Position numbers and translations under genes: made by a program
In this document: piece after piece, positions 11,906-59,296 of the stretch
How positions within the stretch are numbered: the first letter of the stretch is position 1
How the letters are laid out: each line of letters begins with the position of its first letter
Notes under the pieces: generated by a model
Told to the model about the DNA's origin: nothing
The model's input: the letters and a program-made list of their open reading frames with translations, nothing else
The model's database searches: none
DNA from: Squalus acanthias
Taxonomy: Eukaryota
NCBI GenBank assembly: GCA_030390025.1
Contig: CM059438.1
Location: 19,530,001-19,594,000, forward strand
DNA: 64,000 nucleotides
Reading direction: 5' to 3'

Positions 11906-12090
11906 GGGGGGACAATTTTCAACTTTGGCAGGGCCTGAAAACAGGCGGTAGTGGATCGGCTGCCCGTTATAAACCCTCTGCCTAACTTTCCTTTCCATTG
12001 AAGTCAATGGGAAATTGGGCAAGGTGTATAACAGGCAGCTGTTCCACTACCGCCAGTTTTCTGCCCCTGCCAAAGTTGAAAGTGAGCTCC
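11906..12090. mobile_element. Short hairpin MITE with arms of about 65 bp
   Basis: tttcaactttggcaggg...ggcggtagtgga...gttata pairs with tataac...tccactaccgcc...ccctgccaaagttgaaa around a central palindrome ccattgaagtcaatgg. Confidence 0.7.
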
Positions 12091-19267: not shown

Positions 19268-19979
19268 ATGGGCGTCCTTGTGCAAGAAACACAGAAAGAT
19301 TGCATGCAGGTACAGCAAGCATTAAGGAAGGCAAATAGCAAGTTGGCCTTTACTGCAAAGGGGTTGGAGTATAAAAGTAAGGAAGTCTTGCTACAATTGT
19401 ACAGGGCCTTGGTGAGACCACACCTGGAGTACTGTGCACAGTTTTGGTCTCCTTATCTAAGGAAGGATATACTTGCCTTGGAGGCAGTGCAACGAAGGTT
19501 CACTAGATTGATTCCTGGGTTGAGAGGGCTGTCCTATGATGAGAGATTGTGTAGAATGGGCCTATACTCTCTGGAGTTTAGAAGAATGAGAGGTGCTCTC
19601 ATTGAAACATACAAGATTCTGAAGGGGATTGACAGGGTAAATGCTGAGAGGTTGTTTCCCCTGGCTGGAGTGTCCAGAACTAGGGGGCATAGTCTCAGGA
19701 TAAGGAGTAGGCCATTTAAGAACGAGATGAGGAGGAATTTCTTCACTCAGAGGGTTGTGAATCTTTGGAATTCTCTGCCCCAGAGGGCTGTGAATGCTGA
19801 GTCTTTGAGTATATTCAAGGCTGAGATCGATAGATTTTTGGACTCTAGGGGAATCGAGGGATATGGAGATCGGGCGGGAAAGTGGAGTTGATGTCGATGA
19901 TCAGCCATGATCTTATTGAATGGTAAAGCAGGCTCAAGGGGCCATAGGCCTACTCCTGCTCTTATTTCTTATGTTCTTA
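19268..19979 (+). mobile_element. CR1 LINE 3' end
   Basis: 207-aa ORF with LYRALVRPHLEYCAQFWSP...FFTQRVVNLWNSLP and a ttcttatgttctta tail. Confidence 0.92.
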
Positions 19980-24720: not shown

Positions 24721-25262
24721 CTTACAGTGCTCGGCCTGCTCTCGTTTTCTTTCAGCTCTTTTTCATATCTGTGTCTACATTAAATGGCTTCTGTAAGCCC
24801 ACTTAATGTCAGCATCAGCCTAGTATCATGAGTTTTGCTGACAAATTGGACAAGATAAAGGGACTCCACAGAGTGTGCAATTACTGGATAGAACAAGTGC
24901 ATTCCGGAGTAATTCATTTTGAAATTATCTTCATAAATGAGATTTGCAATGCAATCTCCAGAGGGCATTTCCTAAAATCAACTTAACAAGAATACTCCTC
25001 AGAGAATAAAATAAATCATTACCATACTTGAAATTAAACATACCCAGACCAGGTGTAATAATAGCTGCATAAAGAAAACATTGTGTGCAGATGAAAGAAA
25101 ACAAGTAAATCTCTTTCCAACATTATCATTTTTATTTCCCCATCTTTAGAGTTTACAAACTCTTAATTTTGCATATACACTATCAGATCCTCTTATAGGA
25201 CCTGATGTTCTTGTTGACTTCATTACATCAACCACCAGACTGGCTCATCACCCTGTACTTAC

Positions 25263-25337
25263 TTATCTTGTTACCATCATTGGCTGTCTCTTCTGCCCCA
25301 TCACTGTCCTCTTCATTGTCCCCTGATGAAATGGCAT
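25263..25337 (-). CDS. FGFR2: FGFR2 acid-box exon
   Basis: DAISSGDNEEDSDGAEETANDGNKI, compared with FGFR2 DAISSGDDEDD. Acceptor ttttcttccag, donor ATAA|gtaagt, 75 nt, phase 1-1. Confidence 0.93.
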   Translation of the reverse strand: MPFHQGTMKRTVMGQKRQPMMVTR

Positions 25338-25419
25338 CTGGAAGAAAACCATATTCTGTAATCTCCCCAAGATTATGAAAATTTGATATTTGCAAAATGT
25401 TTCTAAAGCATTTCTCCCT

Positions 25420-26242: not shown

Positions 26243-26512
26243 CTGTAATATTTACAACGAAGTACACTGTATCACTGCCTATTGGTCTAATTGCAGTACA
26301 AGCATAGAGGCCCGAATCCTCATGCGTGGCATCACTAATCTGCAAGTACTCTCTGATTATGTAAGTCTTATTGCTGTACCCCAATTGTTCCCCATCTTTA
26401 GTCCAACTGATGCTCTGTACATCCTCTTTCAATGGACATTGCAACTGAAGCAAATCTCCTGGATGCGCTGTGTGCACTTCAGGCTGAGAGATTTGGTAGT
26501 TTGATGGAGGTT
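26243..26512 (-). CDS. FGFR2: FGFR2 Ig-like domain I exon
   Basis: [13 protein letters not shown]...LQCPLKE...ISWTKDG...[19 protein letters not shown]...YFVVNIT matches FGFR2 EPPTKYQISQPE...DSGLYACTA. Acceptor ctttgcag, donor ACAG|gtgagt, 270 nt, phase 1-1. Confidence 0.95.
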
Positions 26513-26677
26513 CTGCAAAGCAAGAAAAGGAAGGAAGGTATGGGAAGGAAAAGGAAAGTTGCAATATAGGTCAGAAAATCTGACTTCAGTTGATGCCCCA
26601 TTTTGCCTTAAAAATAAGCAGTGGTAAGCCAAAGTTTAACATTAGAAATTAAACCACATCTGCCACTTAGACTCATT

Positions 26678-26812
26678 GGGGGTAATTTTTAACTTTTTGC
26701 AATCGTGTAAAACGGATGATACAAGGAAGGGAGAATCAGTAGAAAGCATATGACGGGTGGCCGATCTGCTATCACCCGTTTTACACTATTGCCAAAAGAT
26801 AAAATTACCCCT
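26678..26812. mobile_element. Short hairpin MITE
   Basis: ggggtaatttt...gtgtaaaacggatgata pairs with tatcacccgttttacac...aaaattacccc, TSD ATT. Confidence 0.7.
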
Positions 26813-28618
26813 ATTGACTTTGCTTACTTACACAAGTAAGGAGCAGCATGCAGCAGATATCTAGTACATCTATTTAGAAATAAAAACCCAAACCACAACA
26901 AAATTTAAAACAAAATCAATTACAAGTTCCCAGCAAAGCTTTTTGTTGAGTGTTCCCAGCAAACTGAAAACATGGTAGCACATTGAAATACATCTACCAG
27001 CATTGCCTTAATATGCAACAGATATGGTTTTTCATATTTGTCTGACTATTTTCCATTTCTTGTAGCTATAAAAAGATATTTTTTTTTAAACTGAGATATT
27101 AAATAAACATGATATTGCAAAAGCTTACAGAACATGAAGATAATCTCAAGACAAAGGAATTAACAGCATTATTTGGTGCATTATTTTGCAAAACCAGTAG
27201 TTCTGCACAAGATAACAAAATGCGAAGCAGAAGAAAAACAACTGCCCTGAAATTCCTGGGGCTGGAGGGGGCGCAAGGAGGAGTTAGAAAATGGGCCGCA
27301 TTTTGGCTCCTTTGAATTCCACCACTTTTCAACTAGTAATTCCAGATATGGGAGCCATGGGTGGATCTTCCGTCGCCCTGCTCACGTCAAAGTGGCATGT
27401 GGGGGCGGGGGGGAGAAATATGAGAGTTCCTGGGCTTTCCCGGAAATTCTTCCCTTTATGCCCTTGAAAGGTTTCAGCGGAACTCACACCAGTGGAATCG
27501 TGGTCCAAGCTCCCTTTGAGATCTTGTCGGAAGTGGATCGAGTACCTTCCCTCATCAGAATGGCTCCAGTGCATTAAAAATTAAAAATACATTTCTTTGG
27601 CGAATTTGGCCTCCTTGCCTTGGAAGGGCAGATCAGCTCAAGTACTGATTGCACTCTTGCAGAAGCCAGCGGCATGCCCCAACTGTGCAAGTGACCCGGG
27701 AATGTGGGAATAGGAGGTACATGGAGAAACCCCAAAATGGAAATAAACAAAAAGATCAAATTAATAGACCATTCATATACTTTCCAGGCCATGCAGTACA
27801 GATAACAAATATATTATCTTGATCTTGAGGGGTCATTTTTCTTTTAAGTTTAGTCTTTTATATCTTACTAAATTATAAAATTGCATAAGAAACAGAAGTC
27901 ATTTTCCAACAGAATGACATATGTTAAGAGAAACCTGTCTTAGACATGTCTCTTTAATTAAGCTGTAATTATGTTAAGAAAATTACTCCTGGGCTTTCTT
28001 GTTTCGACAAGGAACTGCTATAATGAATCACCAAGTATTTCTTGCACTACACTACACCAAGACTGCGAGAGGCAATTTGATATGACTGGCGTCTACATTC
28101 CCAGATGACAAAGTGACTGCAAAATTACTTTTAATTGTGCTCTGGGTGAAAAAGCCTTGAAGGAACAACATTTCATAAGGCGAGGTTCTTCAGAGACATA
28201 AAAACAATAATTACTCATTTGCAGACTCCCGAAGCAATGAGCTCCATCTCCCTTCTGTCAATTCTTTGTTGCAAGTTAGTAAGCTGCATTTCTGACTGGT
28301 TCTATATAGAACCATTCATACTTTAATTGAGATACCACCCCCACCCAACCCCACCCCAGCCCGCCCATACAAAGAAACACAATCAATTATGTATTTACAA
28401 CCTCCTTGGGATCCGCTCAACCTCACCTTCCCTCATTCTGCTCGGGGTTAAAGTTTTATCAGAAACATAAAATACAACAAAACTTCTATATTAAGGACAC
28501 AAATGCTATGTTCATAAACCCTGTGCTAATATTTTACACTAAAGGAAATAAAAAACAGTTTTTACATTACAAGAATATGAACTACATGCAGCACACTCCA
28601 ATGACATCACATGGGGAA

Positions 28619-28825
28619 AAAAATGAGAAGTCGCACAACACCAGGTTATAGTCCAATAGTTTTATTTGAAATTACGAGCTTTCGGAGCGCTGCTCCTTCA
28701 CCCGACGAAGGGGCAGCAGCTCCGAAAGCTCGTAATTTCAAATAAAACTGTTGGACTATAAACTGGTGTTGTGCGACTTCTCATTTTTGTCCACCCCAGT
28801 CCAACACCGGCATCTCCGCATCATG
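28619..28825 (+). mobile_element. Penelope-like fold-back element (family A), hammerhead core mutated (CCGACGA)
   Basis: Inverted arms of about 80 bp spanning 28619-28788, a tail gtccaccccagtccaacaccggcatctcc and a 13-bp TSD atcacatggggaa (28606-28618, 28826-28838). Confidence 0.85.
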
Positions 28826-29489
28826 ATCACATGGGGAAGAATTGCCAGATTGCAAGCCAAATTTGTAGACACGTTCTTTTCAAATGTGTTCATGGTGTTC
28901 CACATAGTGAAAAGGCAATTATTCTCTCCACAAGAACCCTACATATGCTGCCTACCTTCTACATAGGAAAAAAAAATTGCATTTAACAAAAACAATGAAA
29001 TCTTGTCATTATAAAGCCCAGTACTGTCTACAGAATGGAGTATAGCATAGGCAGTGAAGCATTAATTAGGTTATATCACACAGGAGAAAGAACTCAATTA
29101 CCTTACACTCAAATTATTTCTCATCTAAGCAATATTTCCAAATATAATACCTTATGTGGATGATGTGTTATATTTATTGAAGAAATCATAAAATTAAGGA
29201 GTTTTTTTTTTTATTATGCACAAGCCTGATCTGCTCCCTTAATGATCCAAGGTAATCATACTCCAATGGTCTGAAATCCTCAGTGACGGATTAAGAAATC
29301 TTGGGGCTCGGGCACTAAAAACATTCGGGCTCCTCTGGCCATTAAAACACAAATGGGTGGTAAAATGGATAAAGAAATATGCCCATACATACTGCATTAA
29401 TAAATTAAAATCATATCACATATACTACGCTTAAATTAACCTCCCCTCTGGTATGGCCCCATAGACCCATGCATTATTGCGCAATTGGA

Positions 29490-29751: not shown

Positions 29752-30483
29752 GAGCCCTAAATTTGCGGTCGGACTCCCCGCAGGCGGACGCTTCTGACCA
29801 GCAAAAAATCTATGAACTTACCTGATAGTCCTGGAGGTTCGGACACTTGCGCTTCTGGTCCTCTATGCGTAGAGGCCCACGTAACCCGGGGCACATGCGG
29901 TTCGCAAGCGCCCTTGGGATCACGTGGGCCGGCCCAGCCAATGAAAGAAAGGGATCCCCATTCATGCTTATCGGGATTCTGTATGTATGGAACTCCTAGA
30001 AGTATGAATGGGAATACCCCCAAAAATACACGTACACTTCAAATAATTTTTTTAAAATCACATTTAAAATGAATCAAAATGGCATTTAATTAAATATTTA
30101 AAACAAAAATTTAATTTTTTGAAAAATAAATTTACATATTTTAAAGGGGCTAAAGTTAAACTTACCTTATTTCACAGGTTTTTAAATGTATAAATTATTG
30201 ATTAACATTTTATTTTTATGTTTTGTAAAACTCTTACACTGGTAAAAGCAGGCCTTACGTTATGCCTGCTTTTACCAGACGTAAGAATTTCACGGGCATT
30301 CGCTGGGCAGAAGTTCTCTGCCCGTGGAGGCCCTTTTCCCGGGGATGCGGAGGATCTGTCAAGAAGATACTTGACAGATTGCAAGTTCCGGGTTTTCACG
30401 CATGCGCCTCACATGCCTAAACCCAGAACTTGCGCGGCCCCTATGGGCACGTGTGCACCCGTAGGGGCCGCAAATTATGACCC
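29752..30483. mobile_element. Non-autonomous TIR element related to 11053-11815, opposite orientation
   Basis: TIRs gagccctaaatttgcgg/ccgcaaattatgaccc. The reverse complement of about 29815-29945 (attggctgggccggcccacgtgatcccaagggcgcttgcgaac...caggtaagt) resembles about 11610-11765. Confidence 0.72.
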
Positions 30484-36893: not shown

Positions 36894-38636
36894 ATAAGAA
36901 CATAAGAAATAGGGGAAGTAGGCCATTCGGCCCCTCAAGCCTGCTCCGCCATTCAATAAGATCATGGCTGATCTTCTACATCAATTCTAATTTCCCGCTC
37001 TATCCCCATATCCCTTGATTCCCTTAGTGCCCAAAAAAATCTAGCGATCTCAGTCTTGAATACACTCAACGACTGAGCATCCACAACCCTCTGGGGTAGA
37101 GAATGAAAAAGATTCACAACCCTCTGAGTGAAGAAATTTCTTATCTCAGTCCTAAATGGCTGACCTCCTTATCCGGAGACCCCTGGTTCTAGACTCTCCA
37201 GCCAGGGGAAACAGCCTCTCAGCATCCATCCTATCAAGCCCTGTAATAATTTTGTATGCTTCAATGAGATCCCCTCTCATTCTTCTGAATTCAAGAGAAT
37301 ACAGGCCTAGTTTACTCAATCTCTTCTCATACGACAGTCCCGCCATCCCAGGAATCAATCTCGTGAACCTTCGTTGCACTCCCTCTATGGCAAGTATATC
37401 CTTCCTTAGGTAAGGAGACCAAAACTGTACACAGTACTCCAGGTGTGGTCTCACCAAGGCCCTATATAATTGGAGTAAGACTTCTTTACTCCTGTACTCA
37501 AATCCTCTTGTAATAAAGGCCAGCATACCATTTGCCTTCCTAATGGCTTGCTGCACCTGCACATTCACTTTCAGTGACTCATGTACAAGGACACCCAGGT
37601 CCCTTTGAGCATCTGCATTCCCCAATCTTTCACCATTTAGGAAATACTCTGCCTTTCTGTTTTTTCTACCAAAGTGGATAATTTCACATTTATCCACATT
37701 ATATTCCATCTGCCATGTTCTCGCCCACTCACTGAGCCTGTCGAGATCCCCTTGAAGCCTCTTCACATCCTCTTCACAACTGACACTGCCACCTAGCTTT
37801 GTATCATCAGCAAATTTGGAAATGTTACATTTAGTCCCCTCATCCAAATCATTGATATAGATTGTGAATAGCTGGGGCCCAAGCACCGATCCTTGCAGTA
37901 CCCCACTAGTCACAGCCTGCCATCCTGAAAAAGACACATTTATCCCGACTCTTTGTTTTCTGTCAGTTAACCAATTCTCAATCCATGCTAGTATATTACC
38001 CCTAATTTTTTTCACCAACCTCTTGTGTGGGACCTTATCGAAAGCCTTCTGAAAATCCAAATACACCACATCTACCGGTTCCCCTTTGTCTACTCCACTA
38101 GTTACATATTTAAAGAACTCCAAGGAGGTTTGTTAAACAGGATTTCCCTTTCCTAAATCCATGTTGACTCTGCCCAATCTTACTATTAATTTCTAAGTGC
38201 CCAGTTATTGCATCCTTTATAATAGATTCCAGCATTTTCCCAACTACTGATGTGAGGCTAACAGGTCTGTAGTTCCCAGTTTTCTCTCTCCCTCCCTTCT
38301 TAAATAGCGGGGTTACATTTGCTATCCTCCAATCTGCAGGAACCGTTCCAGAATCTATAGAATTTTGGAAGATGACAACCAATGCATCCACTATCCCAAT
38401 GGCCACCTCTTTCAAAACCCTAGGATGTAAGTCATCATGTCCTTGGGATTTATCGACTTTTAGTCTCATTAATTTTGCTAGTACTTTTTTTTACTAATAA
38501 TAATTTCTTTAAGTTCCTCATTCTTGCCACACCTTTGGTTTTCTTGTATTTCTGGAAGGTTTTTTGTGTCTTCCTCCGTGAAGACAGAAACAAAGTATTT
38601 ATTTCATTTCTCTGCCATTTCCTCATTCCCCATTAT
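36894..38636 (-). mobile_element. CR1 LINE 3' portion (RT domain)
   Basis: ORFs 38110-38469 and 37152-38123 (YLDFQKAFDKVPH, QGSVLGP, FADDTK, LVRPHLEYC), frameshifted, with a cataagaa tail. Confidence 0.93.
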
Positions 38637-41600
38637 GTTACCCTCTTTCTACCTTGATTTCTCCTTATGCCCATTATTCCCAGGCCAAGCAATTCCCACA
38701 GCCAAGGGGAAGGTGCAAGCAATTCACAGCCAATACCATTCTTAGCCAACCACCAGGAGTCAAGTGTGAATAGACTACTAGGTCACTTCTATCCAAATTT
38801 CACTCTCTTCTGCTGGGAGTGCTCTTTTAATATCCCTTTAACATATCCTGGACAATCAAATGTTCCTAACCAGTCATGTCGCACGAGTAATAATCTTGTA
38901 ACATTGTCAATCATAACTAGAGAATACACAGTTGTATATGCAAAGTTTATACTGTATTGGAAATACAGCAAAAGAACTGTTCCACTACAGATGCCATGCC
39001 AACCAAACTGATGTAATTTAATATGCCACTCTCAAACAAAAAACCTGATCCAGAGGGAATTCTAACAATTTAACATGTGCCAGTGGAGTGGAGAGCAAGC
39101 AAAACATTAAATTGCGACAAATAGTACACTGAAATATCATCTCAGTGCCAGAACAGTACTAGTTTAGGATACATTGCATTTATTGTTTTGAGACACTGCG
39201 GTAATGTTATGTTCTCAGTGTAGGTTTGACCAATTCAAATATGCAGCGTTGAAAAGCTATTGCTATAGTGCTTTTTTTGTAAATCCTTCCTGACATGATT
39301 AATACATCTAGTTTATAAGGCTCTGGTCCATATGCTATTAAAAACTGAAAAATTATTTTTGTTTCTTTGAATATAGAATTGATAATCATTAGTGAGCCCT
39401 GTATCTTGGTGTTATTAATTTTTATCATCCTTAATAGTTGACAAACATTTTTACATCAGACTGCAGCACAGTATTTGAAAGTGTGAACAGTTTTCTTTTC
39501 ACTTCACCACACTTTTTAAAAGCTATTTTTAGTCCCAGTGTGTCCCTTCACAACACAACTCCAATGCGAGCCATCTGTCCCAAAGTTGACTTCTTTAGAA
39601 CACTGTGTAATAGAAGTTACACTTCTAGGAGTCCGTGCTGTCAATGCCAACTCCCTCCTCTTCTCTCAATGAATGGAGTAACTGCCCATAGGGCACTCCA
39701 TCCAGTCGCCCAGCCAAGACGGCTGCTCCCTGGAAACAACCTGGAGTGAATGATGGGCAGTCCTGGAATTTGAACCTGCAACAATCTGATTGGGAGATAT
39801 GCAATCTACCACTTCTATATTAGGTGCCCCATCCCTTGCATGTTTTAATGTAAATATTAGTTTACATTTGCTTTGTGCCCAAATCCCATTATCATGCTGG
39901 GATCTGTAGACAGATCCCAGAATGAACTCTGTATTTACAATGTGAGACTTTGCTACTATGCTCAAACTGGTGAACAGCAAAATCCACCTGGCTGCTCTTC
40001 TTTTACACACCACTGATTTGACACCATCAACTTCACAGCTGCCAAAATGAAGACCAGAGAGGCTTTTACCCACTTGGTTTATGTTTTAAACAGCCTACTT
40101 AGCATTTTTAGTAGCTGTGTTCAGCATCCACTAATATCATAAATAATGTATAATATTCCCTTATTTGGTACTAACTTACCTCGAGAGCAAAAAAAAACAC
40201 TAGATAAAGCTCTGAATTTTTAATCTGTTTAATGATAAAAAATGATTTGAAGCTGCCAGCAGAATTTGTATTTCCGGTGACCTTGATAATTGGACCTAGG
40301 TTAAATCAACTAATTCTTTGCCAAGCAGACACTACCCAGAGTAAATGTCAGATGGCTCAATCATATCTAGTTTTTCAGAAAACATCTAATGTTTGTCAGT
40401 AAAGTGCTACAAATCCCTGGGATAGCAGTGTATTATCCTTGGACACATCAAGCTTTAGCCAAAGATTTATAAATTTGCCTTTAAATGCAAGACCAAAAAG
40501 TTATAATGGAAGAAAAGTTCCTTATGGTTTGGAATACAAGATATCTCCACATCTGCTGAACAGTTCTGAATTTTGATAATTAATGTTTCACAGCTCTCTG
40601 CTTAATTCACTTTCGGAGTTCCAGAGTAGCACCATAGGAAGATAGGGAGCAATCAGCTGTTCTTTTTATTCTTGGTTACAAAAAAACATTGTAGTACAAC
40701 ATCCAAAAAGCAATAAAAAAATGTAATTGATCTTTCCTTATTTCACAATCTAAACAGGTTTCTTGCTAAAGCTCTGCCTTACCTTGGAAAAACCTGCAGT
40801 GGTTGAGTACATGTCAGCCAGATGCCTGTTTCAAGTCCCTTGGACGGGAGCATAACCCAAAGGACCAGAGAGTCAAAAACTCCTGAAAGACCAGGCTGAC
40901 TCTGGTTTTTCATTTCATTTCTACAAAGACCTGGTTCTGTGCTCTAAGCTCAGTTTATGGAAATGAAAGAGGGAGGTTAGTGCAGGGCAGTTACACTTGT
41001 GCTCAACACCTAATTTAATGTCAAGGTGGCGTGGAGTCTGGTTCACACTGCGTGTCGATTCAGCACTCGTGGTTCAGGTGTGTAAAACTGCCTGACATAA
41101 GTCAGGTTGCAGTCACTGTCAGAGCAAATCCAAACCTCGGACGTGCAGCATATCCAGGGTATCATTTTGACTCAGCTGGAGAGGGGGAAATACCAAAGCT
41201 CAGTCTTTAAACAGGCCAAGTAGAAAGAAGTGCATAAACGGACAATTGTGTTTCAAACATGCTGTTTTCTTTTCAACTTCAGAAATGATAAAGGATAAAA
41301 GCCACCAGCAACAGAGCTTGTTTTGCATGTGCACTTTGTATTTTTACACAGCAAATTTTGAAAACACAAGGCAGAGCAGCATATGGGTTAAACAGACCTA
41401 CTGTAAAAGGTCAGTGCTTTCACAAACCTTTCTGTTAGGGGACACAATCCCAAACAGTATCTTACTGTGAGGCCACTCTCTGGAATGTGCCAACATGCTA
41501 CACCATACAGTCATAAGACATGGGCCTGCACCCGCAGTTCCTCACATGGTGAGCTTGTGATTTCAAATGTTTGGATTTGGGCAGCTGCCAAGTGGAGGCC

Positions 41601-41790
41601 AGGCACTTCCCCAAAGGAAGGGAAGGAAAAAATCAAACTACAGGACTGATAGTCCCATTAAAACTATAGCTCTCTTGTTTTCACCCGGTCTTTTAATTTG
41701 CTGTATGAATACTTCTCAATAGCATTCCTTTCCTTTATCTCACTAGACAGCAGAGTAGGACCAGCACTACATGGACATGAACTTTTGCAC

Positions 41791-42019
41791 AAAATAACAA
41801 CAGAAAACGCTGGAAAAACTCAGCAGGCCAGGCAGCATCCGTGGAGAGAGAAAGAGAGTTAACGTTTCAGGTCGATGACCTTTCATCTGATGAAAGGTCA
41901 TCGGCCTGAAACGTTAACTCTCTTTCTCTCTCCACGGATGCTGCCTGGCCTGCTGAGTTTTTCCAGCGTTTTCTGTTGTTATTTCGGATTTCCAGCATCC
42001 GCAGTATTTTGCTATCGTA
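41791..42019 (+). mobile_element. Penelope-like fold-back element (family B) with minimal hammerhead core
   Basis: 96-bp inverted arms 41792-41887 and 41889-41984 (1 mismatch), a 35-nt unpaired tail and a perfect 14-bp TSD atgaacttttgcac (41777-41790, 42020-42033). Core reads CTGATGA-A-AGGTC atc GGCCT-GAAA-CGTT at 41887-41915. Confidence 0.85.
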
Positions 42020-43531
42020 ATGAACTTTTGCACTCTCAGCTTTCAATATTTCACCATTAGCTGCAATGTATAGCTGAAACAAATGCAAAATGAAAAGCAG
42101 CCATTTTAGCACATGAAAGATTCCCTCATCCAAAGGGGACTTACTTAATGAGTTGAAAGATTCTCACTATTTGTAAAATTCATCTTACCCTAGGAATCAC
42201 AAAAACTGAAAACTCTAAAACTGGAGATGCGATTCTGCACTGAACTAACTTTCACTCTCCTCACCTGCCTTACCAGGTCCCTTACATTCCTGCTTATATA
42301 AACCAAATGACCATGACAGCTTCCCAGACCAATTGTATCCAGCAGGCTGTCACTAAAATGTCCCTAACAAAATGCTTGTGTCACCAGCAGGAGGAAAATA
42401 ATACATGACTCATTAAATGGTGATGAGAACCTAACTGCTCTCTCTATATTCTCAGATTACCTTCAAGCGAAAACACCGACTGCAATTTCCCTCGACTGTC
42501 GACAGACCCACAGGCATAAGCCTTCATTCATTTATCTTTCCATCAGTTAAGAAAACCTCATTTAGGTAAACCACGGAGTGATTTTAAGTTCTATCTGCAT
42601 CCTTGGTAACAACCACCATTAAGGTATGGGAGGCTGCTTTGAAACTGCTGATGGTAATGAATTTCAAAACCCACCAAGATCAATATTGAAATAAAAGACG
42701 AGTGACAGAAGTCTCGATATTCCTTTACCATTTTAAAAATAGGCTACGCTGTAATTTAGGGAACTTTGACATCTACTTAACAGGTGGTGAATCTTCACTT
42801 AAAACAAAAAAAATCTGATGGAGATAATCAAATTCAGCTACGACGCTTTATTGGCACAGTGCATGTCACTGTACGACACCACACCAGAGTCCTGCTTTGA
42901 CTGAGCCTTTCCAGAGCAATAGTATCTGCTACTGACATCCTGGAGCCGCCACATGGATTCTCTAGATTACTGGCAAAATAACTAGCAATTCAAGTAAACC
43001 TTGTAGATAATGCTACATCAGAGTGGGTTCTCAATCACTGGAAGCCACACAGCAAAAACGGCTGAATGTGAGTCACAATTAAATGCGCTGCTTCGTGCAG
43101 GTTTTGAAGTAAGAATGCAATCTCCCCTTTTAAGTATTTAAATGATTGTTTGTGGTTTCTGACTTGTGGGGAAATTAGGAACTAAATAAAGGTTTACAAA
43201 AAACAAGAAAAACTAACTTGAAAATAGGAAACTTTTTAAGACATGGGCCTTACAAAAATAAACCAGTGTTAGAAAGTGCACATTAAACAGATACAAAAGA
43301 CAGTCCAACAATCTGTCACTCTAGTAAAAACCTTTGCAAATAACTTCAGTTGTCCCATTGTAAAGTATGCAAGCTACCATCGAAGTTTAATTATTGGTCA
43401 GTCCAGTTAAACACAAATTTGCATGAGAAAGGTTAGAAGCACTTAAATGTTCAATTAGATAACAGCCGCTTTTATTTTCCCTTGATATAATAACTGCCAT
43501 TTAACATTACAATCAATGCAATTTAACATAC

Positions 43532-43697
43532 CTTCTGTTTCCGATGCACCATCATCAGCAGGCTTAAGCTGTGGCCTTGCTACAGCTAGTGCTGCCATGG
43601 TTAACATGGCCCAGCAGACCAAGTAACAGCAACTAGGCATCCTATTAGTGAAGATCCTTAGACCGCTGCTGGAACTCCATCTGGACTCTAATCCCAT
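43532..43697 (-). CDS. FGFR2: FGFR2 first coding exon (19-aa N-terminal extension plus signal peptide); whole exon about 43532-43767
   Basis: Translates MGLESRWSSSSGLRIFTNR-MPSCCYLVCWAMLTMAALAVARPQLKPADDGASETE, resembling FGFR2 [23 protein letters not shown]. Acceptor tttttctttctgcag has its AG at 43769-43768, donor is GAAG|gtatgt, phase 1. There are 109 coding nt from the second ATG (43640), as recalled for mammalian FGFR2. Confidence 0.9.
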
Positions 43698-44248: not shown

Positions 44249-44416
44249 GTGTTTCCTAGGAATTATACTGGTAAAATGAATGCATACATTTGCAATTTTT
44301 CCAGTTGGTATTACAACTGCGAATCCAAAGGGGTGTTTCCTAGGAATTATACTGGTAAAATGAATGCATACATTTGCAATTTTTCCAGTTGGTATTACAA
44401 CTGCGAATCCAAAGGG
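44249..44416. repeat. Perfect 84-bp direct tandem duplication
   Basis: 44249-44332 is identical to 44333-44416 (gtgtttcctagg...gaatccaaaggg). Confidence 0.95.
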
Positions 44417-46360
44417 ACCCAGTTTCAGTCAATGAGCAGGTCTGTCCTCCAGTACAAGCACAAGGCATGTGGGATTGCGACAGCAAACAAAGCTGCACAA
44501 CCTGAGGAATACACATTCTGACCTGAGTCAACACATGGGTCAAAATACATCAACACAGCAGCTCTACATAATAGGAAAAACAACTGATGAAAATAAAAGC
44601 AATGTTTGAGAATAAACGTCTGCGATCCGAGATATCTGGCTCCAATCTCTACCGTAAAAAAAAAGCTCCACTTAAACCCAATTTAACCCTTTCACTGACA
44701 CAAAATATCATCTATGTTTGATTATAGAGTTTGAATGAAACACAATTCCAAAACTGGCTATTCTCTAAAGTGACCTGACAGTATCAGCTTACATGAGTGT
44801 AACATTTAATTTGTTCATACTGCACAATTCTGTCCATGAAAGTTCCGTTGGTGATCAAGAACAAATTACTCTCAGCTCTAATGTAATGCCTTTCACTTCA
44901 GTGGATTCTAATATCCCCAAACACATTTTACTTGCGTGATGATGACCACACAGAGCAGATGATCCAGAATTCAATCAATATACTATTAAAGTGGCACCTG
45001 ACCATAACACTTTTGATATTCCATGATTTTGGATGGAACACACACTGCTGATGGATCGTACTCTTAACAAGAGAAATCTCTCTCCATAACACAACTTTTG
45101 TATTCCTGCCAATAAACGTTGTGAAAAAAAGAGATGTTCTACTCTACATGATTATCATACAAAATGGTATCGGTTTTTGAAAATGTTTTCTCAAATATCC
45201 CTGTTCATTTTGCATTTAATGTATTTAAGTACAAAACCAAAATTTTTCACAGGTATAGAACGTCTTCACATAATTAAGTTGTAAACGGCATAATTTTGGT
45301 GATAGAAATGACATGAATTCTAATCTTTGCATTTATGCCCAATGATATTGGCTGCAAAATACCATTTGATAGTTTGTCAGTTGGTCCTTTCCTGCAACCT
45401 AGAATTCATTTCACACTGATCTAACTTCTCACCCAAATGCACCGTCAGCAGACTTTGGATTATAGCTAACTACAGATCCCGCTTTCCTCATCTTAGAAGT
45501 AACAACTTGTATCTATTCTATTTATTGCCTTTCCATTGAAGGTGACATGAAAGTGTGGTGATAAACAATACTAGATCACATCTCCAATTCACAATTGTAT
45601 AAATATTTCAATACCGTAAAAACTACTACTTCAGGCTGTAAAAAATGCATGTGCTTTTTTTCTACTTAAGAAACAAACAGATAAATATATGGAGTAATCT
45701 TAAAGATGCTACACATTGTGGCAAGTTTTAAAAAATCACGTTTAGAAAAAGTACTGTACGAGTCTTAAGAAGTACCTGAAGTTGATTACAGCATTAGACA
45801 TGCAATTTTTCTCCAGAATGTTCACATATTGGCTCCTTGCAGTAATACAGAAATACACAGCAATCCTTAGCGGAGTTCCTGACACAGTGAAAGCTAGACT
45901 TTTTTTGAAAGGGAACTTTGTCTCCCTCCACAGACTACATTGGGGAGGAGCTGTCAAGCTAATCTGATTGATGGCCTCAATGCCACCCGCTCTTCAAGCC
46001 ATTTTCACCTCATCACATACCTGCCCAAATTATTCTAAACATGGGAAAGGCAGCTAGGTTGAGAGAAGTACTGCATTCCTTCAAGCCAAAAAAAAAAACT
46101 CTCCACGTACAGTTTGCAAGTGAGCACTTGTTCTACAGTGACTAATGTAATTTAACTTCATAAAGGTTATCAAAGTCATTTTATTATTTTTCAGCCTCAG
46201 CTAATTTTTCTTTTCTGTCCCTTACGGCCACCACAATGTAACATTCAAACAAAACATGAAATAAAAAGATACCACATTTTTGATTTCAAAGAGATTACAT
46301 TTAAATGCAATTTTGGCATACAATAATTGTCTGCAATCCAACACTGCTTGGTAGAATTAC

Positions 46361-46910
46361 CTTTACTACCACAGCAAGAATATGACCCACGTTCCCCGCA
46401 GCAGGCGTGTGCACAGGATGAATTAAAGTAAGGAATGTGGGCTCCCCTGGGTAGTCTTCTAGAAACAGAGTTGTGCCTGGACTACTTAGATCCAACTGCC
46501 ATAGGTCTCTGAGGAAAACTCGACTATTCAGAATCAGTGAAAACATGACCCAAACACACATATCCAACATGCGGCTCTCGCAGAATGAAAAAGGGTGTCC
46601 ATTTCTCCAAATAACTTTTTCTTATTAAAAAAAAGAGGAAAAGTAAATCACAAGAGATTACTATCGTCCTGATGGTATCTCTGTGAGAAAACAAAGACGG
46701 CAACAATACAGAATAAAAGCAGATACTGCAGCCCTAGTTCTGGATTCACTTCATTCACAAGCTCGGTGCAATCTCAAAAGCCTTGTGGTGTCTGTAAATC
46801 TTTTCTCCCCCTCTCTCCCCTCTTTGGTCACTCCCCCTGTTTGTAATCTGAACCTGTTCCTGAACCGCGCTTCATCATCAAACAAGCAGAGCAAACTGCC
46901 TCTGCCAATC
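46361..46910 (-). promoter_or_regulatory. Candidate FGFR2 non-coding 5' exon or promoter region
   Basis: Donor AAG|gtaatt at 46360, candidate acceptor ttgttttctcacag at 46682, a purine-rich tract and a CCAAT near 46906, about 2.6 kb upstream of the first coding exon. No CpG island and no transcript evidence. Confidence 0.25.
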
Positions 46911-48600: not shown

Positions 48601-50802
48601 GACTGGATCATTTTACAATAAAATTATTAAAAGCATTTAAAGCAAAAACACTCATTTTCAAACTAAAATCCTACATGTCTAATGTAATACCAAAAAACAC
48701 AGATTCACTATTGTCTGAACCAAAAATTCAGGTTACAAAGTGCTTCAAGAAGCATAATGGCATTTTATAGTACCTTGTATTACTCTCAGAAGGACTAATT
48801 TAGGCAGGCTTTAGTATGCTGTAAAGAACGGAGCTCATTTTCCCCTCAGCTTCAAGCCTACAGTGGCAGAATCTGCCACTACATTATCCAAACAGTCAAG
48901 TTACTTTAAAATACCCAGCCAATGGTGCCAGAACGTCTGAGCCGGAGCCTGTTCTCACACAGAATAAATACTGTGCCTTTTAAACTGTAATTAATTACTT
49001 CAAAGTACATTTTGACAGTATGGGAGTTTGAGGAGAAGTGAAAAAGGGAGGAGCCTTCAAAATGTAAACTATTTCTAAATATTGCTAGTTTGTATTGAGC
49101 ACTGTATGGTTTTGGAGCCGTTACAAAGGGGGCCTGTGGTCTCAAGATCCTTTGGAGCTATCCTAGTCCAAAACCAATCAGCAGCTATATATATATTTGA
49201 AACAATTCTAAGAGTTACTGAAATGCAGTGTAACTGTCATAATAAGCAAGTTAGCAGTGACAGTGTTTATAACTTAAAAAGTAAATTACAGGATGCAAGT
49301 TATAGGTTTATATGATAGCACATTCCAACCTCAGACAGTAAACATTAGTTATTTTTAATAAAACAGCACATAAAATATGTTGTACATCTACCTCAGAGGC
49401 TGGAACTAGGGATGTGCTCTGTTCAAACTCAGACTGAGGGATGAAGGAGAGCAGTTTAGGGTGAACTGCCTGCCTATTTTCCTTCCTTTCATCTCTGCTT
49501 GGAAGGAGTTAGCTTCGACTCACTATTTTCCCAACAACATAAATAAGATCTTGAGCTTGCATTGGAATCACATATGCACTTAAGAAATTTAACATACCGG
49601 CAAGCAGGTATGAAATGATTGGCAGTCACATTTTTCTAGGCTCACGGTTGAAGAATCTGTCATTATAAGCTATAATAAACCAATGGAAAATGTAAATTGT
49701 CCTGCTGCTGTACTCAATTTCTGCCATTAGAGGCTGCTTCTCCATTGCTCAATTAGAACTCAAGGCAATCCACTGCTCGTGTTAACAGCGCAAAATTTAA
49801 CAGATCTGCTGGATTTGTCTTGGGACCTGCACATCTGGACATGCTCAGTCCCTGAGTCAGCAATCTCACAATAGTTCCCAACCATGGTCTCACCAGTTAC
49901 CTGAAAAAATGCCCAGGGTAATTTTCTGACTTTGCACTCCCGGCAGTGACCCTTGCCCACTGACCGTGCTTAGTGCAAATTCAGGCATGGGCTGCACAGG
50001 ATTTTCTTACCGTCAGAAAATAGTGCACAGTGCATGTACCTGAATTTCTAATGTGCGCTTCCAGTGAGCATGGCTCCCCACCAGAAGCACAAAGTTAGAG
50101 AATTATCCCTCAAGTCTAAATATACTGAATATTTAGGGACAGTAGCTAAAGTATTTTATAAATTAATTCACAGAAAACACTGAAAAGAGAATACAACACT
50201 TTTTAATTCCAGTCATTTACATTTGACACATTTTTCTTTTTTGAAAACAAAAATCACATAAACCAGAAATGACTACACTGGAGCTGTCCCAAAATGTATT
50301 ACTGGTTCATAGCTGGCTGCTCAGTGGTTGTTCCGCTTGATTTATCTCTCACTCTCAAAACTCGTCCATCTTTTTGACTGACAACCCAGGTGGAATGGAA
50401 TGGAGGTTTTTTTTTCCTCCTGTGCAGCTATGAAACAATTCCATATACACCTACAAAAACATCACTGAAACCACAAAAATGTTGACTCTGTCCTTACATA
50501 TTAAAACAGATAGCTCACTCTGTGGTAGATGTCAGAAGGAGGAGCTAGATTATCTGGTTAGCTTGATGCAATCATTTTAAAATCACCACACCTCAAGAGG
50601 CGCCTAATTTACAGTTGATAAATAGATAGTTGCATGCATACATCATTACGCAATTCCATACATTTTTCTGAACTTATCAGAATTGGGAGCAATATGCATG
50701 ATTGTTGTGCTCATTTTACTGCACTACCGTACAGAATAAACAGCACAGAAGCAGGCCATTCAGCCCAACCAGTCCATACCATAAACATGTAAAAGAGTCA
50801 TA

Positions 50803-51633
50803 GGGCAGAATTTTCATTGACCCGTGGAGGCGGGTTTGGAGGCGTGTGGGGTGGGAAAATAGCAGATTCGGGGGTCCCGAACCCATCCCGCCCCCAACCC
50901 GCCTCCATGCCAGTTTCACAGGAGGCGGGTTCCCGACCTGTGCTGGGACCCGCCTCCCTGAGGCGGGAAGGGGATTAGTGGCAATAAACTGCCTGTTAAC
51001 AGGCAGTTTTTTGCCTAATCCCTATTTTTGGCCCTGAAGTGTGGGCTTCCCGACAGGTCCGAACCACGCCGATTTAGCGAGGCGGACCGTCGGTCTGGAG
51101 GGCTTGGAGGGGTTGAGATGTGCGGTGTGCAGGTGAGTGATCGGTGCATGAGTGCAGAGGTAAGTGTGTTTGGTGTGTGTAGTGTTTTAAGAACTTGTAC
51201 TTACCTTAACTTTGTCCTGCAGGCTTCCTTCCTTCAGGTCTCGTGAGTCCCTCAGCTCACCGGCACAGAAAGCAGAATGGCCGCGGAGCTGTCAAAAGCT
51301 GCAGTCTCTGCTTTCTGTGCTGGACTGATTTCTAACTTAGTCTAAGTACAGGGACTCACGTTAGAAATCATATTGTCAGTGTTTGACAGCTTCACAGAGC
51401 TGTCAAACGCTGAAATTTCATCTATCAAAAGCTCTTGACAGATGAAATTTCAATGGCTGACGTCACCTGTATCCAAGGGACCCTTGATTGGCCTGCTAAG
51501 CCCGCTGGGCGGGCTTAACAAGGTCAATCAAGGGAAAATACAGTGGGTTGGCCACAAGTCGATGGAGGCGGGACTACAACCCAAAAAGTGGGAGTCCCGC
51601 CTCCATCACGTCCCCATTGACAAAATCCAGCCC
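50803..51633. mobile_element. Non-autonomous TIR element (PIF/Harbinger-like MITE) inserted in the CR1 3' tail
   Basis: TIRs gggcagaatttt/aaaatccagccc, subterminal tggaggcggg/cccgcctcca repeats and a 3-bp TSD ATA. The flanks rejoin as agagtcatagagtcagag. Confidence 0.75.
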
Positions 51634-54600
51634 ATAGAGTCAGAGTTATACAGCACAGATAGAGGCCCTTCGGCCCATCGTGTCCGCGCCGGCCATCAAG
51701 CCCTGTCTACTCTAATCCCATTTTCCAGCACTTGGTCCGTAGCTTTGTATGCTATGGTGTTTCAAGTGTTCATCTAAATGCTTCTTGAATGTTTTGAGGG
51801 TTCCTGCCTCTACCACCATTTCAGGCAGAGAGTTCCAGATTCCAACCACCCTCTGGGTGAAAAAGTTTTTCCTCAAATCCCCTCTAAATCTCCTGCCCCT
51901 TACCTTGAAACTATGCCCCCTGGTTATTGACCCCTCTACTAAGGGGAAAAGTTCCTTTCTATCTACCCTATCTATGCCCCTCATAATTTTGTACACCTCA
52001 ATCAGGTCCCCCCTCAGCCTTCTCTGCTCTAAGGAAAACAACCCCAGCCTGTCCAATCTCTCTTCATAGCTGAAGCGCTGCAGCCCAGGTAACATCCTGG
52101 TGAATCTCCTCTGCAGCCTCTCCAATGCAATCACATCCTTTCTATAGTGTGGCGGCCAGAACTGCACACAGTATTCCAGCTATGGCCTAACTAGCGTTTT
52201 GTACAGCTCCATCATAACCTCCCTGCTCTTATATTCTATGCCTCGGCTAATGAAGGCAAGTATCCCATATGCCTTTTTAACCACCTTATCTACCTGTCCT
52301 GCTGCCTTCAGGGAGGTACATGCACACCAAGGTCCCTCTGATCTTCTGTCCTTCCTAGGGTCCTACCATTCATTGTGTATTCCCTTGCCTTGTTAGTCCT
52401 CCCAAAATGCATCACCTCACACTTTTCAGGGTTAAAAATTCCATTTGCCACTGTTCTGCCCATCTGACCAACCCGTTATATCATCCTGTAGCCTGAGGCT
52501 TCCCTCCTCGCTATTTATCACCCCACCAATTTTCGTGTCATCTGCGAACTTACTGATCATACCTCCTACATTCATATCTAAATCATTAATGTACACTACA
52601 AACAGCAAAGGACCCAGCACCGATCCCTGCGGTACACCACTGGACACAGGCTTCCAGTCACAAAAACAACCTTCGACCATCACCCTCTGCCTCCTGCCAC
52701 TAAGCCAATTTTGGATCCAATGTGCCAAATTGCCCTGGATCCCATGGGCTCTTACCTTCTTGACCAGTCTCCCATGCGGGACTTTGTCAAAAGCCTTACT
52801 GAAGTCCATGTAGACCACATCAACTGCGCTACCCTCATCCACATACCTAGTCACCCCCTCGAAAAATTCAATCAAATTGGTTAGACATGATCTCCCCCTG
52901 ACAAAGCCATGCTGACTATCTGTAAAATTCGCAAATTATCACGATTCAAAAATAACGAGAGGTACAGTTTCGTTCAAGTAGTTTTATTTCAGCGAAATGC
53001 TGTCATGTTTCAAAACGGACACAAGAAGCCTGTAAAATGGCCGCCGCGCCTCGTGGCAGAAGTTTCCAGAATTTTCAGTTGGCAGACAAAATGGCGTTCG
53101 AATAAACATTTCAGTAAAGATTGGCTAATACGCAGCAAACACTGATAAAGACAGGATGCAATCTGTCTGCATCCGACACAATAGCAAAGATATAAGTGCT
53201 GGAATCGTTTTCCTTGCACAAGTAAGGACCATTGTAATGGGCAATCGAAGGCCCATCCAGATACATCAATACGCAAATTCCCCACGGCTCTACAATGAGA
53301 GAGCCATTCACGGGTGATTAAGTCAGTATTCGAGAAGGCCCCAAAACCAGTCAGGGAGACTCCTAGCCGGTTCGACAATGGGGAAAGCATTAACGGGTAG
53401 TTGGCCAGTTTAAGGTGCTACCGAAACCCATTACAAACAAGAATCACTCCATACTGGGAATTTTGAGCGCCAAGATTTTACAAAGGATGAACATTAAGAT
53501 TTGGGCGGGAGATAAGGGAACACAGCACTATAACTATAGTGAACAAATGTCCATGGCTCTCTTGGCTCTTATCTTGCTGCTGGCTGCTGAACTCTCTTAT
53601 TCCTCTGATCCTCCCGGGGCTGATTCGTTTGACCGGGTGCACCATCCCGAGGGTCGGTAAACGGTGTTCTGGACCCGAAGGCCCGAAGAGATGAGACGAG
53701 ACGAGACGAGATGAGAAGAGAAGAAGAATCCACGTGCCGCCGCGGTCAGTAAACCCCGACCGCGCCCGTAAATATAAAGACCATTTTTGAACTCTATCAG
53801 GTTACTGCATGAACTGGTCAAAGACTTTTCTTCGAATGCTATCGACAACCGGTGTCAATACAGGAAGACTCTTCTTTGAATTTTACCGGCTAACTGGTGT
53901 CGGTCCAGAAAGACTTTTCTTTGAGTTCTACAGTCGGGCCCGAGCACTGTCGAGTTCTTCATGACAACGGGGAGCCCAGCCTGCTAGCCGGAGCAGGGAA
54001 GATAAACAAGTGGGGTACAGAGACCCTTTCCAACACGTGACGGTCAGGTGTTGCAGCGAAACAAGCCGAGTGCCTTACTTTAAAATTCTCCGAGGTATCA
54101 CGAGTGGTGAGCATGTTTCCTCGATCCTACAAATCTAGATTAGTGTAGGTATTGATAGGGGAGGGTGATTTTATTAAGGATAAATATAATGTGTTCCCCT
54201 TTTTACGATGTGCCGTGCGTTCCTAATTACCCTAGACCAAGTTTTATGAATATGTATACTTGTACTGTCATTAATTTGTGCCTATGAAATGCACTTTATG
54301 ATTTTGGACGTTATGCAATAAAGATTTCCATTTCGTACTATTCAACCGGGTCTATCTGAGTTTTTCTCTGCATTACTGCTCTCGCATCTAAGTCCAGTGT
54401 TAGAACCGTAAGGGCAAGTGGGTCGAACCACTCACAGGTGCTTATTGCAACAAGGCTGGCCGGAGACCAGAGCAAGCAATAGTATTAGGCAACGAAGGCC
54501 TAACCCCGCACAAGCACCCTGAACCGAAACCCCTTACAGATCCTTGATTAATCCTTGCCTCTCCAAGTGGAGACTAATTCTGTCCCTCGAATTTTTTCCA

Positions 54601-56745: not shown

Positions 56746-57910
56746 TGTAGATGTAAGAACATTGTTCAGTCAAAATTTTGGGCAAATCGGGAATACAGCC
56801 TTTTCCTTTGCTGTCACCAACACCGTTCCACAATCAACCAATAGGAAGCATCATTCTATGGGGCAGGACTGGTTCTTCCAGTCTTAGCACCATTTACTGG
56901 AGTGCTCCATCCGGTGGCCCGGCCAAGAATGACAGCTAAGTACAGTATGCAAACTCAAGAGTCTTAAATGTTAGCTACAACAATTAAGGTTTTGACATCA
57001 GGTGGGCCCAGGTGCAGCAAAAACTCAAAAGACTGATACAATTGGTTCCCATCTGAAAAGGAGTTACCATTTTCAGGGAAGTCAATCTCAGCATATAGTA
57101 ATTCTAGGCAGAGAGTCTGAATGCACTGAATATAAATTCAAACTACAAGTATCATTTTTACTGCAACATACCACAGCTTCTGGTACGCTCTAATATGCAG
57201 TATTTATAGATCTTTCATTCATAGAGAAAACCTATCACACCCTGCGCTTGCAACACTTTCTCACTGTAATGGGCTTTTTGCACAATTTTCAAAAGATTAC
57301 AAAATGGTTTACTGTATTATAAGAACACAAGAAATAGGAGCAGGAGTAGGCCATACGGCCTATCAAGCCTGCTCTGCCATTGAATAAGATCATGGCTGAA
57401 CTTCTATATCAACTCCGCTTTCCCGCCATATCTTTATATCCCTTGATTCCCTTAGTGCCCAAAAATCTATCGATCTCAGACTTGAATATACTCATCGACT
57501 AGGCATCTACACCCCTCTGGAGTAGAGATGTCTGAAGATTCAAAACCCTTTGAGTGAAGAAATTTCTCCTCATCTCACTCCTAAATGACTCTAGTTCTAG
57601 ACTCTCCAGCCAGGGGAAACAGCCTCTCAGCATCTACCCTGTCAAGCCCTCGTTTCAATGTGATCACCTCTAATTCTTCTCAACTCCAGAGAATATAGGC
57701 CCATTCTATTCAATCCCTCCTCATAGGACAGCCCTCTCATCCCAGGAATCAATCTAGGGAACCTTCGTTGCACCCCCTCTAAGGCAAGTATATCCTTTCT
57801 TAGGTAAAGAGACCAAAACTGTACACAGTACTCCAGGCATGGTTTCACCAAAGCCCTATATAATTGCAGCAAGACTTCCTTACTCTTATACTCCAACTCC
57901 CTTATAATAA

Positions 57911-58102
57911 TGAGAAGTCGCACAACACCAGGTTATAGTCCAACAGTTTTATTTGAAATCACAAGCTTTCGGAGCGCTGCTCCTTCGTCAGGTGAGCAGC
58001 GCTCCGAAAGCTTGTGATTTCAAATAAAACTGTTGGACTATAACCTGGTGTTGTGCGACTTCTCACATTTGTCCACCCCAGTCCAACACTGGCATCTCCA
58101 CA
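57911..58102 (+). mobile_element. Penelope-like fold-back element (family A) nested in a CR1 LINE
   Basis: Same arms and tail as 28619-28825. Imperfect 12-bp TSD cccttataataa/cccttgcaataa. It interrupts the CR1 RT C-terminus. Confidence 0.85.
57960..57994 (-). ncRNA. Minimal type I hammerhead ribozyme motif
   Basis: Minus strand reads CAC-CUGACGA-A-GGAGC AGC GCUCC-GAAA-GCUU-GUG: stem I CAC/GUG, conserved core, 5-bp stem II, palindromic AAGCUU stem III and an NUH site. This is the architecture described for Penelope-element hammerheads. Confidence 0.7.
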
Positions 58103-58811
58103 CCCTTGCAATAAAGGCCAACATACCATTTGCCTTCCTAATTGCTTGCTGTACCTGCATGTTAACTTTGTGGTTTGTGTACAAGAACTCCCAAATCTCT
58201 CTGAATACCAATATTTAGTAGTCTCTCACCTTTTAAAAACTATTCTGCTTTTTCATTCTTCCTAACAAAGTGGAAAATTTCACACTTCCCCACATTATCT
58301 CCTTTTTGCCCAATCACTTAACCAGTCTATATCGCTTTACAGCCTCTGTGTCCTCCTCACAGCTTACTGTCCCACCTAGCTTTGTATCGTCAACAAACTT
58401 GGATATATTATACTCAGTCCCTTCAGCTAAGTCATTGATATAGATTGTAAATAGCTGAGGCCCAAGCACTAATCCTTGAGTTACATCCTGCCAGTCTGAA
58501 AATGACCCATTTATCCCTACTCTCTGTTTTATGTCCGTTAACCAATCCTCAATCCATGCTAATATATTATCCCCAATCTCATGAGCCCTTATCTTATGTA
58601 ACAACCTCTTGTGCGGCATCTTATCGAATGCCTTCTGAAAATCCAAATATACTACATCCACTGGTTCCCCTTTATCTACCCTGCTAGTTACACCCTCAAA
58701 AAACACTAATAGATTTGTCAAACACTATTTCCCTTTCATAAAACCGTCTTGACTCTGCCTAATCAGTGATTTTCCAAGTGCCCTGTTACAACGCCCTTAA
58801 TAATGGATTCC

Positions 58812-59296
58812 GCTGCCTCCGCAAGATCCTGCAAATCCATTGGCAGGATAGGCACACCAACGTCAGAGTCCTCGCTCAGCCCAGCATCAAAGATTTGACC
58901 ATGCTCGATCAACTCCGATGGACGGGTCACATCGTCCGCATGCCCGATACGAGACTCCCAAAAGAAGCGCTCTACTCGGAGATCCGACACGACAGGAGAG
59001 CCCCAGGTGGGCAGAGGAAGCGCTTCAAGGACACCCTCAAAGCCTCCTTGAAAAAGTGCAACATCCCCACCGACACTATGAAAAGAGTTGTGAGTAATGA
59101 TGCAGTAGTGGACTGCGACCGGTTGGTAGCGCTGTGGAGCGGGCGAGCCAAATTTCTCTTTTGAAGCCACTTTGAATCTGTAAAAATCATAGTCATCACC
59201 TGATCTTGGACGACGTTAGAGGCCACTTCCTAGCTCTGTCACTAACATTTTAAGTTATTTTTTTCCGGTTCCGAGGGACTGCCTAAGAAGAAGAAG
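58812..59296 (+). mobile_element. RTE-clade LINE 3' fragment carrying a non-RTE-looking insert
   Basis: RCLRKILQIHWQDR...LRWTGHIVRMPDTRLPK...GGQRKRFKDTLK, a (GAA)n tail and a 10-bp TSD aatggattcc (58802-58811, 59297-59306). Confidence 0.85.

Follow-up and report, generated by a model that had tools for sequence, protein, structure and literature searches.

A probable Penelope-like insertion whose inverted arms meet at a minimal hammerhead core in an fgfr2 intron of Squalus acanthias

An intron of the Squalus acanthias gene fgfr2 holds a palindromic insertion, bordered on each side by target-site duplications (TSDs), with a minimal hammerhead ribozyme core at its centre. This insertion, element A, lies at 41777..42033 on the plus strand of the window, the whole 64-kb stretch of contig CM059438.1 that was analysed. 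We think it likely that element A is a young, 5′-truncated insertion of the 3′ terminus (pseudo-LTR, pLTR) of a Penelope-like element (PLE) and that its palindrome was created during integration; the PLE identity, taken by itself, we regard as highly probable. Taken as an object, element A is unremarkable, a piece of PLE debris left in an intron of a shark. Its two inverted copies are joined at the hammerhead's 5′ edge, and the positional link between junction and ribozyme edge looks real, albeit in a tiny sample.

The two TSDs of element A (41777..41790 and 42020..42033, both plus strand) are 14 bp long and identical at 14/14 positions; when the same test was applied to 3000 random positions, none reached at least 12 bp, and the maximum was 11. 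A single extra A (41791) separates the left TSD from the short inverted arm (41792..41887, minus strand, 96 nt), a tail-less, 5′-truncated copy of the PLE 3′ terminus that extends, in element sense, to +2/+3 of the hammerhead core (C3 = 0). After a loop of one nucleotide, T41888, comes the direct, or sense, arm (41889..41984, plus strand, 96 nt), and the arms are identical at 95 of 96 positions, the sole mismatch being T41872 opposite G41904. The head-to-head junction (41887..41888, plus strand) has 0–1 nt of shared sequence, with C41887 doubling as the final base of the left arm and as C3 of the right-arm core. A 35-nt PLE tail (41985..42019, plus strand), which opens with a 5-bp stem-loop (41985-42001), completes the 229-nt insert, and there is no tandem repeat at the locus. 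An earlier note on this DNA had described the same geometry of 96-bp arms, 1-nt loop, tail and 14-bp TSD, all of which we reproduced from the sequence. The CpG observed/expected ratio is 0.91 in the insert (41791-42019) and 0.35 across the window, a difference consistent with a young insertion. Additionally, an ATG within the hammerhead core opens a 43-codon frame that spans arm and tail (41890-42018); this frame could be the start of a parent ORF or could be chance.

The core itself is of the minimal type I kind (41887..41915, plus strand; predicted cut after 41915). CTGATGA (41887-41893) is followed by an unpaired A41894, a stem II of five pairs, one of them G:U, GAAA at 41908-41911 and, on the 3′ side, a palindromic CG, U16.1 and U17, such that the whole minimal type I motif set (CUGANGA, stem II, GAAA, a palindromic NN and UH) is present. 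The earlier note had placed the symmetry centre on a hammerhead core on the grounds of CTGATGA, stem II and GAAA, and both a descriptor search and inspection of the core bear it out. A strict minimal-hammerhead descriptor gave two matches in all over both strands of the 64 kb, one in element A and one in element C (see below), with a mean of 0.023 matches per window in 300 dinucleotide shuffles; allowing one core mismatch gave four matches, every one of them inside three palindromes (A and the two described below), in a relaxed scan to which the shuffle control does not extend. Rfam, on the other hand, returned no hammerhead for the whole window at gathering score and none for 41700-42100 at E ≤ 10, where the 10 matches were all to miRNA and snoRNA models below gathering; these we rejected as structure-only and below threshold. 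A further argument, that the arm mismatch supports stem II by keeping a G:U pair, we also rejected; little can be learned from one transition that happens to leave a G:U, and the same position reads as a C-A mismatch on the fgfr2-transcribed strand.

Is the element A ribozyme alive? Folding predictions suggest that it is probably dead, because its stem I is only 1 bp and its core is buried in a hairpin. Where at least 2 bp of stem I were required, element C has 4; on the core side, element A closes its stem II with an A-U pair in place of the conserved G10.1-C11.1, where element C has G-C. On the minus strand, the sequence that spans the junction is CAGATGA, the broken core of the short arm. 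The full element A RNA is predicted to form a single hairpin (−190.8 kcal/mol, z −26), with a stem II pair probability of 0.0 as compared with ~0.47 for the sense arm alone, and the target energy of a double hammerhead is +0.3 kcal/mol for element A versus −20.7 for element C, the target being the MFE for neither. The earlier suspicion that stem I is truncated and that this copy may be inactive agrees with these predictions. Within 41887-41904, the core CTGATGA has an alternative partner in the loop region of stem II, with which it can form a 7-bp hairpin that has its foot exactly at C3 and competes with the ribozyme fold.

The case for a Penelope-like origin rests on the combination of a head-to-head inverted, 5′-truncated copy, a one-sided tail of 30–40 bp, a TSD of variable length and a hammerhead near the 3′ end, and in this combination the origin that the earlier note had proposed agrees with the published PLE layout. 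PLE insertions typically consist of an inverted 5′-truncated copy with a 30–40-bp tail on one side (PMC8557442); for example, Pen2a_Av has an inverted pLTR, a 31-bp tail and a 9-bp TSD (PMC3846280). Element A shares its layout with EN+ PLEs (Penelope/Poseidon and Neptune; PMC8557442 Fig. 2, PMC3846280 and PMC2377424 Fig. 1C) and differs from them in that both copies are reduced to 80–135 nt here, so that there is no ORF or direct pLTR pair; with an insert of 229 nt and a frame that matches no protein family, it is not itself an autonomous EN+ PLE. Metazoan PLE hammerheads likewise show CUGANGA, an unpaired base before stem II, GAAA, a two-base palindrome and UH (PMC4209133), and U17 is frequent among the 56 rows of Fig. 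S3 of that paper; element A departs from these ribozymes in its 1-bp stem I and in the A-U at 10.1-11.1, although a few of those rows have this pair too. Dual minimal hammerheads on opposite strands 100–700 bp apart, as well as single motifs from truncated PLEs, have been reported (PMC4209133), whereas the two cores of element A overlap at the junction; neither Table S1 nor Fig. S3 of that source lists a shark. In PAc (Poseidon of Anolis carolinensis), the hammerhead lies ~100–130 nt upstream of the 3′ ends, and an ATG close to stem II starts a reading frame that runs on through the tail (PMC11167929), both much as in element A, although the shark frame is a prediction with no match to a protein family. 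Animal non-LTR retrozymes (PMC7229834; bioRxiv 10.64898/2026.07.22.740005) are, like element A, non-coding, hammerhead-bearing and derived from PLE pLTRs, and tandem retrozymes have been reported in one chondrichthyan (bioRxiv 10.64898/2026.07.22.740005); retrozymes, however, form head-to-tail tandem arrays with active hammerheads, whereas element A is a single head-to-head insertion. Palindromic copies of this kind are easily mislabelled as MITEs or miRNA precursors.

Two more insertions in the window, elements B and C, were discovered by self-BLAST and not by the hammerhead motif. Among the 14 short centre-spanning inverted repeats that self-BLAST revealed, the three most perfect long ones are A, B and C (98, 92 and 94%), and these contain all descriptor matches. 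Element B (28606..28838, plus strand) represents a second PLE family and has the same layout as A, with TSD copies at 28606-28618 and 28826-28838, arms that reach to about 28792 and a hammerhead core at 28702 in which U4 is replaced by C. Element C (57899..58114, plus strand; arms 57911-58065) belongs to the family of B and is inserted in a CR1-like LINE; its TSD copies match at 10/12 positions, and the TSD 12-mer is present in single copy in both of the two closest uninterrupted CR1 paralogues, which provides an empty-site check. Its complete minimal hammerhead is on the minus strand, in the inverted arm (C3 at 57991), and would be on the fgfr2-transcribed strand if transcription starts upstream of C. 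A one-sided tail is found in all three hammerhead-bearing palindromes (35 nt in A, 33 in B and 37 in C), and TSD length varies (14, 13 and 12 bp, respectively). Elements B and C have a common family sequence yet differ in junction, short-arm end and tail end, and at both sites that distinguish them the variant is present in both arms of each element. The tail of element C folds to a 5-bp stem-loop and that of element B does not; the A+C content is 66–67% in the family-2 tail regions, which in this respect resemble the AC-rich initiation loop of PAc, but only 42% in the element A tail region. An exact 17-mer match to family 2 at 41552-41568 was treated as chance, there being no further similarity, and an exact 18-mer match to the element C left junction at 15186-15203, also with no further similarity, is probably chance as well.

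The other 11 of the 14 palindromic repeats (1216-1400, 11548-11599, 11917-12081, 26673-26817, 28293-28318, 30225-30293, 39892-39925, 49916-50108, 50971-51022, 51411-51452 and 51481-51534) have no hammerhead core and are probably old MITE-like DNA elements. LINE fragments with RVT_1 lie at 16160-16989, 19247-19979, 36894-38490, 51712-52935 and 57319-59727, and we take them to be CR1; one LINE is interrupted by element C, and there is a second LINE-like piece near 58763-59215. At 44249-44416 is a perfect 84-bp tandem duplication (two copies, 100% identical), either a recent duplication or an assembly feature. ARAGORN predicts 0 tRNA genes in the window and thus no tRNA-derived SINE head, although a degenerate head could be missed.

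Beyond the window, the family-1 motif has 0 matches in GTDB and the family-1 arm none in plasmids, and family 1 is represented here by one DNA copy, element A. A generic head-to-head pattern found three loci in GTDB (L001, L002 and L003), one of which, L002, was rejected as chance, having neither arms nor a descriptor match. The other two lie on one contig, CBDBZY010000051.1, which is filed under a bacterial MAG and is eukaryote-like in its microsatellites and CpG observed/expected ratio (0.17–0.42), and which carries what is presumably a CAP-Gly-like exon (L003, 997-1275, minus strand); its place in a bacterial MAG is probably contamination. Four hammerhead-type palindromes, D to G, were examined within 2.5 kb of this contig, G being degraded. 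Because elements D and E were selected by pattern, all they show is that another eukaryote has this layout; selection played no part in F and G, each of which has one arm that ends well downstream of the core. Relative to C3, both arms of D end at −6, those of E at −5 or further and at +16, and those of F at +5 and about +22; a search of D to F revealed neither a clear TSD nor a clear tail.

At the protein level, the 43-codon sense frame had six matches in a representative protein library, of which four are short spurious repeat ORFs and two are unrelated. Two of the four translated family-1 relatives, P0002 and P0005, cease to match at the short-arm boundary; the other two, P0003 and P0007, continue through the tail. 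In all three that have upstream sequence (P0002, P0005 and P0007) similarity sets in near the core, and the residues before that point resemble neither one another nor the inverted arm; since frameshifts could hide an arm from a protein comparison, this start at the core would be a weak guide to upstream structure. None of 8 candidates passed when the sense frame was compared with longer proteins, none of 12 passed for the antisense frame, and the ESM Atlas had no usable match for the element A frame. Of 800 stop-free stretches, the 284 with a length of at least 58 aa were compared with Pfam; they matched RVT_1, Ig domains and, below cut-offs, two weak models, with no GIY-YIG. The autonomous Penelope (RT plus GIY-YIG) for which the earlier note advised a search was therefore found neither in window ORFs nor in protein searches, no eukaryotic genome being among the material searched; mobilisation in trans, by a protein encoded elsewhere, is supported.

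Where do the arms end relative to the ribozyme? Counted from C3, the ends fall at 0..+1 and +2..+3 in A, at −2..−5 and +5 in B, and at +9..+11 and −2..−4 in C, such that 6/6 arm ends in the window lie within −5..+11 nt of C3, and the A–C junctions allow 0–3 nt of shared sequence. Under a uniform-ends model, B and C alone (n = 2) give p = 0.044 for a template that reaches 5 nt upstream and p = 0.0009 for one that reaches 500 nt, values that are only indicative, as the interval was chosen once the data had been seen. The earlier note had tied the fold-back point to the ribozyme; the position holds, with a junction at the 5′ edge that recurs in B and C, but the causal tie is unproven, and we consider it doubtful, because PLEs that lack canonical hammerheads, the Naiads, also form inverted copies with tails (PMC8557442) and because hammerhead cleavage is dispensable in vitro. 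A more mundane cause is plausible, namely that a transcript end, a splice junction or an RT release point coincides with the ribozyme edge. In Drosophila virilis, for example, the 5′ end of helix I is where an intron terminates (PMC4209133), and the start site is followed by 46 nt of exon (PMC2377424). In the published minimal-hammerhead consensus, a U-rich tract lies a short way upstream of the ribozyme (PMC4209133). In the literature covered, which takes in few subscription papers, we found no statement that the inversion junction maps to the hammerhead edge; the available part of the PAc paper is silent on where inverted copies are joined, and its Fig. S2, on genomic PAc ends, may show it (PMC11167929).

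We propose that such insertions could arise by priming from two strands, a route that we somewhat favour. A PLE RT/GIY-YIG protein encoded elsewhere would cut both strands of the target with the 14-nt stagger that the TSD records. Uncleaved element RNA would then be reverse-transcribed from each cut strand as primer, beginning at one or the other of two internal start sites that are separated by 35 nt, so that one of the copies has a tail and the other lacks it; the asymmetry of the tail would follow from two primed strands joined head-to-head. The PAc protein provides a precedent in vitro, in that it cleaves and extends both strands, with unprocessed RNA as its main substrate and a tail length equal to the distance between two RT start sites; it is a predicted dimer, and hammerhead catalytic mutants still insert (PMC11167929). 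Element A keeps its predicted cut site intact, and the junction lies ~25–30 nt upstream of it, both of which point to an uncleaved template. The two cDNAs would end at about the hammerhead 5′ edge, where their ends are seen, most simply because short templates start there or because the RT releases there, and would be joined head-to-head through 0–3 nt of microhomology, as the junction sequences would allow, and filled in. The product would be a dead-on-arrival passenger.

The closest competitor to two-strand priming is a U-turn, following the self-priming proposal of PMC3846280, in which one cDNA or antisense template turns at the hammerhead 5′ edge and copies back to the start of the tail. 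A single RT U-turn gives identical junction letters, and the near-zero loop of element A, the palindromes at inverted junctions in rotifer PLEs (PMC3846280) and the element-specific variants shared by the arms of B and C are all in its favour, although these variants fit a single template or arm conversion as well as they fit two templates derived from one master. At the turn, however, the bottom strand of element A reads CAT-CAG-ATG and offers no priming stem, and the sole natural snap-back, in which the core pairs with the loop of stem II, would put the centre of the palindrome at another position, on which ground simple snap-back priming was rejected for element A. Arm ends that are 13–21 or more nt apart in C, E and F also speak against a turn, as does the stop of the copied-back strand exactly at the tail boundary, which a U-turn leaves unexplained and two RT start sites explain. 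We therefore consider the U-turn unlikely, though still a serious contender. Less probable again is the discrete, protein-free hairpin retro-unit of the earlier note, which would be transcribed and retrotransposed as a hairpin and have a family history of its own. All three hammerhead-bearing remnants in the window are indeed short hairpins, none reaching past the hammerhead 5′ edge, and non-autonomous PLE derivatives exist, both as tandem retrozymes (bioRxiv 10.64898/2026.07.22.740005) and through trans-mobilisation by pLTRs (PMC3846280). B and C, however, are of one family and still differ in where they are joined and in where their short arms and tails end, a pattern that speaks for hairpins formed afresh with every insertion; for element A, such inversion de novo would hold by analogy with family 2. 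P0002, P0005 and P0007 show no inverted arm before the core, within the limits that frameshifts set at the protein level, and the RNA of a whole element would bury stem II. That element A is instead a MITE or a fold-back DNA transposon, with only a chance likeness to a hammerhead at its centre, is scarcely credible and largely refuted: the 11 other palindromic repeats lend it some plausibility, but the inverted repeat ends 35 nt before the right TSD, so that terminal inverted repeats do not abut the TSD, TSD length varies among the three elements, and the chance expectation of the strict descriptor is low.

The host gene, fgfr2, is on the minus strand, and five of its coding exons map to 8149-43697. 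Elements A and B share the intron between the signal-peptide coding exon (43533..43697), the splice donor of which is ~1.5 kb from element A, and the Ig1 exon (26244..26513); these two exons and a third (25261-25338), all of them minus-strand, match Squalus acanthias FGFR (P0010) with 100% identity, and two more fgfr2 exons show 93–95% identity to FGFR. At 46344-46570, similarity to the N-terminal extension found in a Mustelus isoform marks a conserved stretch, which may be an upstream fgfr2 exon or a conserved element. In fgfr2 pre-mRNA, element A would likely fold to a ~95-bp hairpin and serve as an ADAR substrate; massive A-to-I editing of Penelope has been reported in a lizard (PMC5625713).

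What might the ribozyme contribute if not cleavage? Both the role of the hammerhead in PLEs and the origin of inverted copies are described as unresolved (PMC8557442). We tentatively raise the possibility, as a long shot, that across hammerhead-bearing PLEs the uncleaved minimal hammerhead acts as a dimerisation and termination module that sets the junction, and not as a nuclease. Two template RNAs would pair through the palindromic helix III and a swapped stem I, and a PLE protein acting as a dimer would copy them from the two start sites with its two subunits until the cDNA ends met at the 5′ edge of the core. Every insertion of this kind puts a near-perfect ~95-bp dsRNA into host pre-mRNA. 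If junctions cluster at the ribozyme 5′ edge across families, a genome-wide table of junctions would test models of PLE integration; and if the dimerisation idea is true, the minimal hammerhead would have a role in integration that does not require cleavage, which would explain the mass of ~200-bp near-perfect hairpins in shark introns.
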